This document shows, one piece after another, positions 18,889 through 20,689 of a DNA stretch of 64,000 nucleotides. The DNA comes from Escherichia coli (lineage in GTDB: Bacteria > Pseudomonadota > Gammaproteobacteria > Enterobacterales > Enterobacteriaceae), in NCBI RefSeq assembly GCF_003790525.1, contig NZ_CP033634.1, one strand, 5' to 3'. Position 1 is the first letter of the stretch. Every line of letters starts with the position of its first letter. The notes under the pieces are model-generated. The model made no database searches. It was given only the letters and a program-made list of their open reading frames with translations, and was not told the DNA's origin. The position numbers and the translations under genes are program-made.

Positions 18889-19708
18889 GGCACTGTTGCA
18901 AATAGTCGGTGGTGATAAACTTATCATCCCCTTTTGCTGATGGAGCTGCACATGAACCCATTCAAAGGCCGGCATTTTCAGCGTGACATCATTCTGTGGG
19001 CCGTACGCTGGTACTGCAAATACGGCATCAGTTACCGTGAGCTGCAGGAGATGCTGGCTGAACGCGGAGTGAATGTCGATCACTCCACGATTTACCGCTG
19101 GGTTCAGCGTTATGCGCCTGAAATGGAAAAACGGCTGCGCTGGTACTGGCGTAACCCTTCCGATCTTTGCCCGTGGCACATGGATGAAACCTACGTGAAG
19201 GTCAATGGCCGCTGGGCGTATCTGTACCGGGCCGTCGACAGCCGGGGCCGCACTGTCGATTTTTATCTCTCCTCCCGTCGTAACAGCAAAGCTGCATACC
19301 GGTTTCTGGGTAAAATCCTCAACAACGTGAAGAAGTGGCAGATCCCGCGATTCATCAACACGGATAAAGCGCCCGCCTATGGTCGCGCGCTTGCTCTGCT
19401 CAAACGCGAAGGCCGGTGCCCGTCTGACGTTGAACACCGACAGATTAAGTACCGGAACAACGTGATTGAATGCGATCATGGCAAACTGAAACGGATAATC
19501 GGCGCCACGCTGGGATTTAAATCCATGAAGACGGCTTACGCCACCATCAAAGGTATTGAGGTGATGCGTGCACTACGCAAAGGCCAGGCCTCAGCATTTT
19601 ATTATGGTGATCCCCTGGGCGAAATGCGCCTGGTAAGCAGAGTTTTTGAAATGTAAGGCCTTTGAATAAGACAAAAGGCTGCCTCATCGCTAACTTTGCA
19701 ACAGTGCC
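18889..19708 (+). mobile_element. IS26 (820 bp), copy 1
   Basis: 14-bp terminal repeats GGCACTGTTGCAAA at 18889-18902 and inverted at 19695-19708; no flanking 8-bp duplication. Confidence 0.95.
18952..19656 (+). CDS. tnp26: IS26 transposase Tnp26
   Basis: [34 protein letters not shown]..., 234 aa. Confidence 0.95.
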   Translation: MNPFKGRHFQRDIILWAVRWYCKYGISYRELQEMLAERGVNVDHSTIYRWVQRYAPEMEKRLRWYWRNPSDLCPWHMDETYVKVNGRWAYLYRAVDSRGRTVDFYLSSRRNSKAAYRFLGKILNNVKKWQIPRFINTDKAPAYGRALALLKREGRCPSDVEHRQIKYRNNVIECDHGKLKRIIGATLGFKSMKTAYATIKGIEVMRALRKGQASAFYYGDPLGEMRLVSRVFEM

Positions 19709-19869
19709 GTTAAAAGCAACAAAAATGACTTCGTTGATGCTGAAGCTATCTGTGAAGCAGCATCACGTCCATCTATGCGTTTCGTGCAGCCCAGAACCGA
19801 ATCTCAGCAGGCAATGCGAGCTCTGCATCGTGTCCGTGAATCCCTGGTTCAGGATAAGGTGAAAACAAC
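19709..19869 (+). pseudogene. 161-bp remnant of an IS110-family transposase gene trapped between the two IS26 copies
   Basis: One frame reads ...DAEAICEAASRPSMRFVQPRTESQQAMRALHRVRESLVQDKVKTT, resembling the NDxxDAxAICEA..RP.MRFVP motif of the intact IS110-family transposase at 37379-38395. Confidence 0.5.
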
Positions 19870-20689
19870 GGCACTGTTGCAAAGTTAGCGATGAGGCAGC
19901 CTTTTGTCTTATTCAAAGGCCTTACATTTCAAAAACTCTGCTTACCAGGCGCATTTCGCCCAGGGGATCACCATAATAAAATGCTGAGGCCTGGCCTTTG
20001 CGTAGTGCACGCATCACCTCAATACCTTTGATGGTGGCGTAAGCCGTCTTCATGGATTTAAATCCCAGCGTGGCGCCGATTATCCGTTTCAGTTTGCCAT
20101 GATCGCATTCAATCACGTTGTTCCGGTACTTAATCTGTCGGTGTTCAACGTCAGACGGGCACCGGCCTTCGCGTTTGAGCAGAGCAAGCGCGCGACCATA
20201 GGCGGGCGCTTTATCCGTGTTGATGAATCGCGGGATCTGCCACTTCTTCACGTTGTTGAGGATTTTACCCAGAAACCGGTATGCAGCTTTGCTGTTACGA
20301 CGGGAGGAGAGATAAAAATCGACAGTGCGGCCCCGGCTGTCGACGGCCCGGTACAGATACGCCCAGCGGCCATTGACCTTCACGTAGGTTTCATCCATGT
20401 GCCACGGGCAAAGATCGGAAGGGTTACGCCAGTACCAGCGCAGCCGTTTTTCCATTTCAGGCGCATAACGCTGAACCCAGCGGTAAATCGTGGAGTGATC
20501 GACATTCACTCCGCGTTCAGCCAGCATCTCCTGCAGCTCACGGTAACTGATGCCGTATTTGCAGTACCAGCGTACGGCCCACAGAATGATGTCACGCTGA
20601 AAATGCCGGCCTTTGAATGGGTTCATGTGCAGCTCCATCAGCAAAAGGGGATGATAAGTTTATCACCACCGACTATTTGCAACAGTGCC
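19870..20689 (-). mobile_element. IS26 (820 bp), copy 2, inverted relative to copy 1
   Basis: Terminal repeats at 19870-19883 and 20676-20689; identical transposase on the minus strand. Confidence 0.95.
19922..20626 (-). CDS. tnp26: IS26 transposase Tnp26 (copy 2)
   Basis: Protein identical to copy 1. Confidence 0.95.

Follow-up and report, generated by a model that had tools for sequence, protein, structure and literature searches.

Two inverted IS26 copies around a 161-bp IS5075 fragment: a probable deletion scar of an IS26-bounded multiresistance region in an IncF plasmid of E. coli

Two intact copies of IS26 facing each other across only 161 bp of DNA raise the question of how such an arrangement comes about, and whether it is a transposon in its own right, the product of an inversion, or what remains of something larger. 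We address this question for one such pair on an Escherichia coli IncF plasmid, within an analysed stretch of 64 kb (64,000 nucleotides, referred to below as the window, with position 1 its first base). The initial annotation had placed two inverted IS26 copies at 18889-20689, and these coordinates proved exact, the copies being 820-bp reverse complements with the following layout:

18889-19708, plus strand: IS26 copy A (IS26-A), 820 bp, delimited by its terminal repeats, with tnp26 at 18952-19656
19709-19869, plus strand: internal fragment of IS5075, 161 bp, corresponding to IS5075 nt 316-476 (transposase codons 84-137)
19870-20689, minus strand: IS26 copy B (IS26-B), 820 bp, with tnp26 at 19922-20626 on the minus strand, its IRR end towards the IS5075 fragment and its IRL end towards mcp

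The two copies are identical in sequence, and each is bounded by perfect 14-bp terminal inverted repeats, GGCACTGTTGCAAA, which have four exact matches in the 64-kb window (at 18889, 19708, 19870 and 20689; approximately 0.03 expected by chance). Both tnp26 genes are intact, with a stop-free translation of 234 aa, and the DNA of both copies is 100% identical to that of IS26 in plasmid pGZM7d, where the coding sequence is annotated as WP_001067855.1. Because the IRR ends of IS26-A and IS26-B point inward, the tnp26 genes are convergent. We designate the four boundaries of the pair J1 (last 19 nt of tnpR/IS26-A IRL, at 18888/18889), J2 (IS26-A IRR/IS5075 nt 316), J3 (IS5075 nt 476/IS26-B IRR), and J4 (IS26-B IRL/mcp). 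The structure as a whole is known from one assembly only.

The octamers that flank the copies read TGCGGAGG/IS26-A/GTTAAAAG and AAAACAAC/IS26-B/CTTTCGAC. No 8-bp direct duplication is present around IS26-A or IS26-B in any octamer pairing (the flanks agree at 2/8 and 3/8 positions, and the best direct pairing is 3/8), as the initial annotation had noted for both copies. The lack of such a duplication is expected for IS26 copies after deletion or recombination, and does not affect their identity as IS26.

At first glance, the pair resembles the IS26 pseudo-compound transposons Tn4352, Tn2680, and Tn6023, in that a DNA segment lies between two intact IS26 copies, and the initial annotation had assigned it that structure. 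That label is wrong, because pseudo-compound transposons require directly oriented copies of IS26-family elements (PMC7986276; Harmer, Pong and Hall 2020, as relayed in PMC7885326). The known examples have direct copies and a resistance gene and can release translocatable units, whereas the present pair is inverted, and all that it brackets is a 161-bp dead sequence with no passenger gene; inverted IS26 pairs stop at the cointegrate stage (PMC7986276). The pair also lacks a flanking 8-bp duplication, and has no second occurrence in PLSDB, complete E. coli genomes, GTDB representatives, or JGI metagenomes. We therefore give next to no credence to a mobile pseudo-compound or composite transposon carrying the 161 bp as its cargo; the IS26 pair and its 161 bp cannot move as a unit.

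The nature of the enclosed segment is clear. The spacer is identical at 161/161 positions to IS5075 (a 1,327-bp element), a match found in thousands of plasmids, whereas IS4321-type copies are just 90-95% identical to it (approximately), and its translation matches the NCBIfam model NF033542 (IS110 family; E = 2.7e-17). The earlier reading of the segment as an IS110-family remnant of IS4321/IS5075 type is thus borne out, with IS5075 as the element that it matches. IS5075 belongs to the IS1111 group of the IS110 family. Both of its ends with their subterminal repeats, as well as the full 334-aa transposase, are absent, so that codons 84-137 alone are left and the segment is a remnant; it is non-functional, since it has neither IS end nor a start codon. 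The target context of the parent element in a Tn21-family repeat has been lost from the window, but can be seen in relatives: in pGZM7d the 3' end of IS5075 adjoins TCCGTTTTCTGAGG..., and in relatives L004 and L005 its 5' end adjoins CTTAGCGTGCTTTATTT. These sequence contexts appear to fit the fixed position of IS5075 in the 38-bp terminal repeat of Tn21-family transposons, as the work of Partridge and Hall (2003) is cited in PMC6052338, and the suspected connection with Tn21-family terminal repeats is upheld in that the parent IS5075 of these relatives sits in such a repeat.

The IS26 pair is itself embedded in a Tn1722/TnAs1-type transposon (Tn21 subgroup, Tn3 family) that occupies 15867-23719 of the window, with the following features:

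15862-15866, no strand: left copy of the 5-bp target-site duplication TTTAT; its second copy comes after the right terminal repeat, at 23720-23724
15867-15904, plus strand: 38-bp terminal inverted repeat at the tnpA end, 100% identical to the intact 5,640-bp element L019
15900-18866, minus strand: tnpA, intact, 988 aa, TnAs1/Tn1721-type Tn3-family transposase, matching the WP_001138014.1 gene of pGZM7d
18870-18888, minus strand: tnpR remnant, the last 19 nt, from alignment to pGZM7d and L019
20690-22184, plus strand: mcp/orfI of Tn1722, a PAS-domain methyl-accepting chemotaxis gene lacking its first 60 nt, 100% identical to nt 3934-5428 of L019 and annotated in pGZM7d
22185-23499, minus strand: IS1414 (IS256 family, carries astA) within the 3' end of mcp, with the 8-bp duplication GGCAAAAC at 22177-22184 and 23500-23507
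23682-23719, minus strand: 38-bp terminal inverted repeat at the mcp end, followed by TTTAT at 23720-23724

Comparison with the intact 5,640-bp copy of this transposon, L019, shows precisely what has been replaced. The window element is 100% identical to it save for the IS1414 insertion and a 911-bp gap (L019 nt 3023-3933), in place of which stands the 1,801-bp unit of IS26, IS5075 fragment, and IS26. Gone with these 911 bp are tnpR except for its last 19 nt, the res region, and 60 nt from the start of mcp. The window transposon is consequently a crippled derivative: it has kept an intact tnpA, both terminal repeats, and the TTTAT duplication but has lost tnpR and res, so that unresolved cointegrates are the most that it could be expected to form. 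An inversion between the two halves of the Tn1721-type element, with tnpA on the minus and mcp on the plus strand, was considered and rejected, as this divergent layout is native in the intact L019.

The origin of the IS26 pair is best approached through its nearest relative, the E. coli IncF plasmid pGZM7d (NZ_CP129283.1; chicken liver, Henan), which is collinear with the window across all 64 kb, with approximately 14 substitutions and a few changes in repeat number. Beyond the shared IncF backbone and Tn1722/TnAs1 insertion, pGZM7d has the same inverted IS26 pair, and its IS26/IS5075 nt 316 and IS26/mcp junctions (J2 and J4) are base-identical to those of the window. In pGZM7d, however, the two IS26 copies stand 6.7 kb apart and enclose IS5075 nt 316-1327, sul2, ISVsa3, and a recombinase gene. 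Only three structural differences separate the two sequences: the gain of IS1414, which is absent from pGZM7d, and two losses. The first loss corresponds to pGZM7d 52941-56912 (3,972 bp), a block left of IS26-A that holds tnpR, tnpM/urf2, intI1, dfrA17, and aadA5, and it ends exactly at the IS26-A IRL. The second corresponds to pGZM7d 57894-63596 (5,703 bp), comprising IS5075 nt 477-1327 together with the outer part of the Tn21-family terminal repeat, sul2, ISVsa3, and the recombinase gene, all kept between the IS26 copies of pGZM7d, and it ends exactly at the IS26-B IRR. The window has no resistance genes, because all of those predicted in pGZM7d fall inside these two missing blocks.

Because the window lacks two pGZM7d blocks that each end exactly at an IS26 terminus, we consider the region more likely than not to be a scar left by deletion from a widely circulating multiresistance region bounded by IS26, within a Tn1722/TnAs1-type transposon on an IncF plasmid, formed in part by a cis deletion from IS26-B into a local hot spot (described below). 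The cis pathway of IS26 predicts one retained flank and one target flank, with the IS kept and no duplication (He et al. 2015, PMC4471558; PMC7986276), and both losses have this form: each ends at an IS26 terminus, with the IS and its other flank unchanged, one original flank and one new one, and no duplication, on the presumption of a pGZM7d-like ancestor. The likeness to described cis deletions (PMC4471558, PMC7986276) is limited in that both new junctions also occur in other plasmids and may stem from recombination of existing junctions; the excised circle and any intermediate are predicted ones. The direction of change is set by parsimony alone, deletions being irreversible; alternatively, pGZM7d could have regained the segments by recombination.

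The initial annotation had offered either deletion or inversion as the origin of the pair, and of these it is deletion that stands. A one-step intramolecular inversion, in which trans transposition of one IS26 into a target close by produced the second copy and turned the 161 bp around, would leave identical, inverted copies without direct duplications, as observed. The same pathway also predicts that the inner octamer of one copy is the reverse complement of the other copy's outer octamer (PMC4471558), and no exact match of this kind is present: the inner-left octamer agrees with the outer-right one at 6/8 positions, which we take as chance among several comparisons, and the inner-right with the outer-left one at 1/8. 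Such an inversion is moreover unnecessary, because the same inverted pair exists in pGZM7d, 6.7 kb apart, with J2 and J4 unchanged. We regard this reading as effectively refuted and very unlikely to hold.

To place the four junctions in a wider context, we counted true junctions in other plasmids using short probes carrying just 24 nt of IS26, as hits joined from two separate pieces can pass for complete junctions. J1 is present in approximately 117 PLSDB plasmids (Klebsiella, E. coli, and Salmonella), with variable cargo past the IS26, and J1, IS26, and J2 occur as one piece at 100% identity in at least nine other plasmids, among them IncI1 plasmids of E. coli from Chinese livestock. For example, the IncI1 plasmids pEC008 (NZ_KY748190.1) and pA468_p0 (CP142536.1) carry a block identical to that of the window, running from tnpA and the 19-nt tnpR remnant through IS26 to IS5075 nt 316 onward; in contrast to the window, they have IS5075 complete at its 3' end, with sul2, strAB, tet(A), floR, and ISVsa3 beyond it; at their far IS26 the neighbour is aac(3)-IId instead of mcp, and the backbone is a different one. 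J4 is present in pGZM7d, pKP2722-3, and others. J3 is far rarer, with exact matches in four Klebsiella plasmids (4/72,556 PLSDB plasmids), which keep the 5' end of IS5075 inside a Tn3-family terminal repeat, and none among 5,426 complete E. coli genomes. All four IS26/flank junctions thus already occur in other plasmids, and the sole new pairing is that of J3 and J4 on one IS26 copy, which was found nowhere else. Likewise, a 281-bp probe over both inner junctions had no full-length match in PLSDB or the 5,426 complete E. coli genomes, and the exact 189-nt pattern spanning IS26, the 161 bp, and IS26 had none in GTDB representative genomes or JGI metagenomes. Two candidates for close structural matches, H31 and H35, were rejected, as both are Tn1721/IS26 arrangements associated with KPC, in which IS26 is oriented the other way.

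These counts weaken the notion that both missing blocks are fresh, lineage-specific IS26 deletions: with J1 in approximately 117 plasmids and J3 in four, descent and recombination could explain either junction without new transposition in this lineage. For the left side of the deletion scar, we would accordingly treat the block of tnpA (with the tnpR remnant), IS26-A, and IS5075 nt 316 onward as a pre-existing arrangement, which would first have been made by an intramolecular (cis) IS26 deletion from a pGZM7d-like structure, and then either inherited here or swapped in by homologous recombination via tnpA and IS26. The crossover of such a swap is not placeable from SNPs, as tnpA differs from that of pGZM7d by one substitution only, at 15939, distant from J1. 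On the right side, the second step would be intramolecular replicative (cis) transposition by the IRR end of IS26-B into AAAACAAC, IS5075 nt 469-476, with the 5.7 kb removed as a circle.

The target of this second step is of interest in its own right. IS26 is generally regarded as having little target preference. In the E. coli plasmid CP063712.1, however, IS26 lies in the same octamer, AAAACAAC (IS5075 nt 469-476), in the opposite orientation, and in diverged IS4321-like copies there are IS26 junctions 3 bp from nt 476, with reciprocal junctions of their own. A further junction is found 10 bp away in the K. pneumoniae plasmid pKP2722-3 (NZ_CP116906.1), beside the same IS26/mcp junction as in the window. 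This plasmid provides a close parallel to the right side of the scar, as there, too, an IS26 cuts IS5075 with its IRR end and adjoins mcp at the identical position with its IRL; it differs in that the cut is at nt 466, the 5' end of IS5075 is kept inside a Tn3-family terminal repeat, and there is no IS26 at nt 316. That the octamer at the right inner junction has been hit independently elsewhere suggests, from these sequence comparisons, a local IS26 hot spot. The queries could retrieve junctions within approximately 15 bp of nt 476 only, and within 10 bp they give at least three to four independent events, two of them in the identical octamer and in opposite orientations. It is a serious, if still tentative, possibility that nt 466-476 of IS5075/IS4321 (AAAACAAC and its neighbours) are truly preferred by IS26, and that J3 of the window is a further independent hit rather than a shared ancestral junction. 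An IS26 hot spot in IS5075 is not described in the review of the IS6 family (PMC7986276), nor was one found by literature search.

The main rival to a cis deletion on the right side is re-assortment by descent, in which J3 was made once, when IS26 transposed into a complete IS5075 carried by a Klebsiella/Citrobacter lineage of plasmids, and homologous recombination later replaced the 5.7-kb sul2 segment, either through two crossovers, one within the 161 bp of shared IS5075 sequence (nt 316-476) and the other in IS26, or through an IS26 cointegrate resolved via IS5075. J3 is indeed base-identical in the four Klebsiella plasmids whose IS5075 has its 5' end preserved in a Tn3-family terminal repeat, and J1-J4 all pre-exist elsewhere. 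In addition, the reciprocal of J3 (IRL/AAAACAAC-TAATCAG, that is, followed by IS5075 nt 477 onward) is present in NZ_CP097662.1, NZ_CP093466.1, and NZ_MH892479.1, which are two of the four J3-bearing Klebsiella plasmids (on the opposite strand) and one Citrobacter plasmid. Because this reciprocal junction exists, at least one J3 was made by ordinary transposition with an 8-bp duplication outside the lineage of the window, and the J3 that has a reciprocal partner probably arose there by intramolecular inversion. On the other hand, descent needs a rare co-resident donor (4/72,556 PLSDB plasmids and 0/5,426 complete E. coli genomes) as well as a crossover inside just 161 bp, and the identity of J3 does not need descent, because independent IS26 hits on the AAAACAAC octamer are demonstrated. 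We therefore hold re-assortment by descent to be a real but rather unlikely source of J3.

That every junction is known, yet their combination is unique among PLSDB, complete E. coli RefSeq genomes, GTDB representatives, and JGI metagenomes, is also what an assembly collapse would give. Under this explanation, further IS26-bounded modules, lying between J1 and J2 (J1-IS26-[module]-IS26-J2), between J3 and J4 (J3-IS26-[module]-IS26-J4), or both, would have been merged via the identical 820-bp repeats. However, a contig that passes through two 820-bp repeats 161 bp apart implies long reads or spanning pairs, the remainder of the window is regular against pGZM7d, and a real IS5075 nt 476/IS26 junction would still be needed in the isolate to account for J3. 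A collapse is accordingly improbable.

The deletion scar is ordinary IS26 biology, with known components and known junctions; the region is of little importance in itself. It illustrates that IS26 can strip all of the resistance genes (dfrA17, aadA5, and sul2) from a multiresistance plasmid and leave behind two active IS26 copies, which can recapture resistance modules later. It also calls for caution in reading an IS26 history from one locus, since identical junctions recur across unrelated plasmids. Only the apparent hot spot for IS26 in IS5075 is of broader relevance; if real, it would bear both on target choice by IS26 and on how safely plasmid epidemiology can take shared junctions as evidence of common descent. 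As for the pair as it now stands, we expect from established IS26 biology that each copy is still capable of cointegrate formation, of further deletions, and of taking up translocatable units, and that RecA-dependent recombination between the two copies can flip the intervening 161 bp.

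The window (1-64000) is a resistance-gene-free derivative of a multiresistance IncF plasmid of the type of pGZM7d, its closest relative. The two backbones differ by only ~14 substitutions, and the two blocks missing from the window hold dfrA17, aadA5 and sul2, all three. pGZM7d keeps an arrangement that one cis deletion by IS26 could have turned into the left outer junction of the inverted IS26 pair, at 18888/18889, where tnpA and 19 nt of tnpR run into IS26. We find this same junction in ~117 plasmids from several genera, among which the cargo past IS26 differs.

Inside the pair, the IS5075 fragment ends in what is apparently a target hot spot for IS26, nt 466-476 of IS5075/IS4321. 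Depending on the plasmid, the octamer AAAACAAC is occupied by IS26 in either orientation, and other IS26 junctions are found at distances of 3 bp and 10 bp, giving at least three to four independent IS26 events within 10 bp at the following places (L-numbers denote comparison loci from other plasmids):

IS26 target region in IS5075/IS4321
19862-19869, window
4155-4162, L004/L005
~1577, L008/L009
~1570, L010
~575, L020
L021

In two Klebsiella plasmids, a single IS5075 is present as two halves, each adjoining an IS26:

IS5075 halves
61517-61620 and 115956-116075, NZ_CP097662.1
91277-91380 and 100545-100664, NZ_CP093466.1

In both plasmids one half is on each strand and the two have the octamer AAAACAAC in common, which is the textbook signature of intramolecular inversion by IS26.

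In the host element of the IS26 pair, a Tn1722/TnAs1-type transposon (15867-23719), tnpA is intact and the two 38-bp terminal repeats remain, as does the TTTAT duplication; tnpR and res are gone, such that the element could still form cointegrates but not resolve them. The 3' end of its mcp gene carries a further insertion, flanked by the 8-bp duplication GGCAAAAC:

22185-23499, IS1414 of the IS256 family, with the astA/EAST1 enterotoxin gene

IS1414 is missing from pGZM7d, and its insertion is therefore recent.

Elsewhere in the backbone, the 8-bp repeat AAGATAAC forms an array on either side of a ParA-like partition gene, at window ~28660 and ~29772. These two arrays may be partition-site iterons; relative to pGZM7d, one is a unit shorter and the other a unit longer. 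Separately, a CTGCTA hexamer array at ~46004 has four fewer units (24 bp) than its pGZM7d counterpart, and the plasmid leading region contains three dispersed direct repeats of ~500-630 bp that are 93-98% identical:

42691-43338, direct repeat
46021-46679, direct repeat
51489-52013, direct repeat
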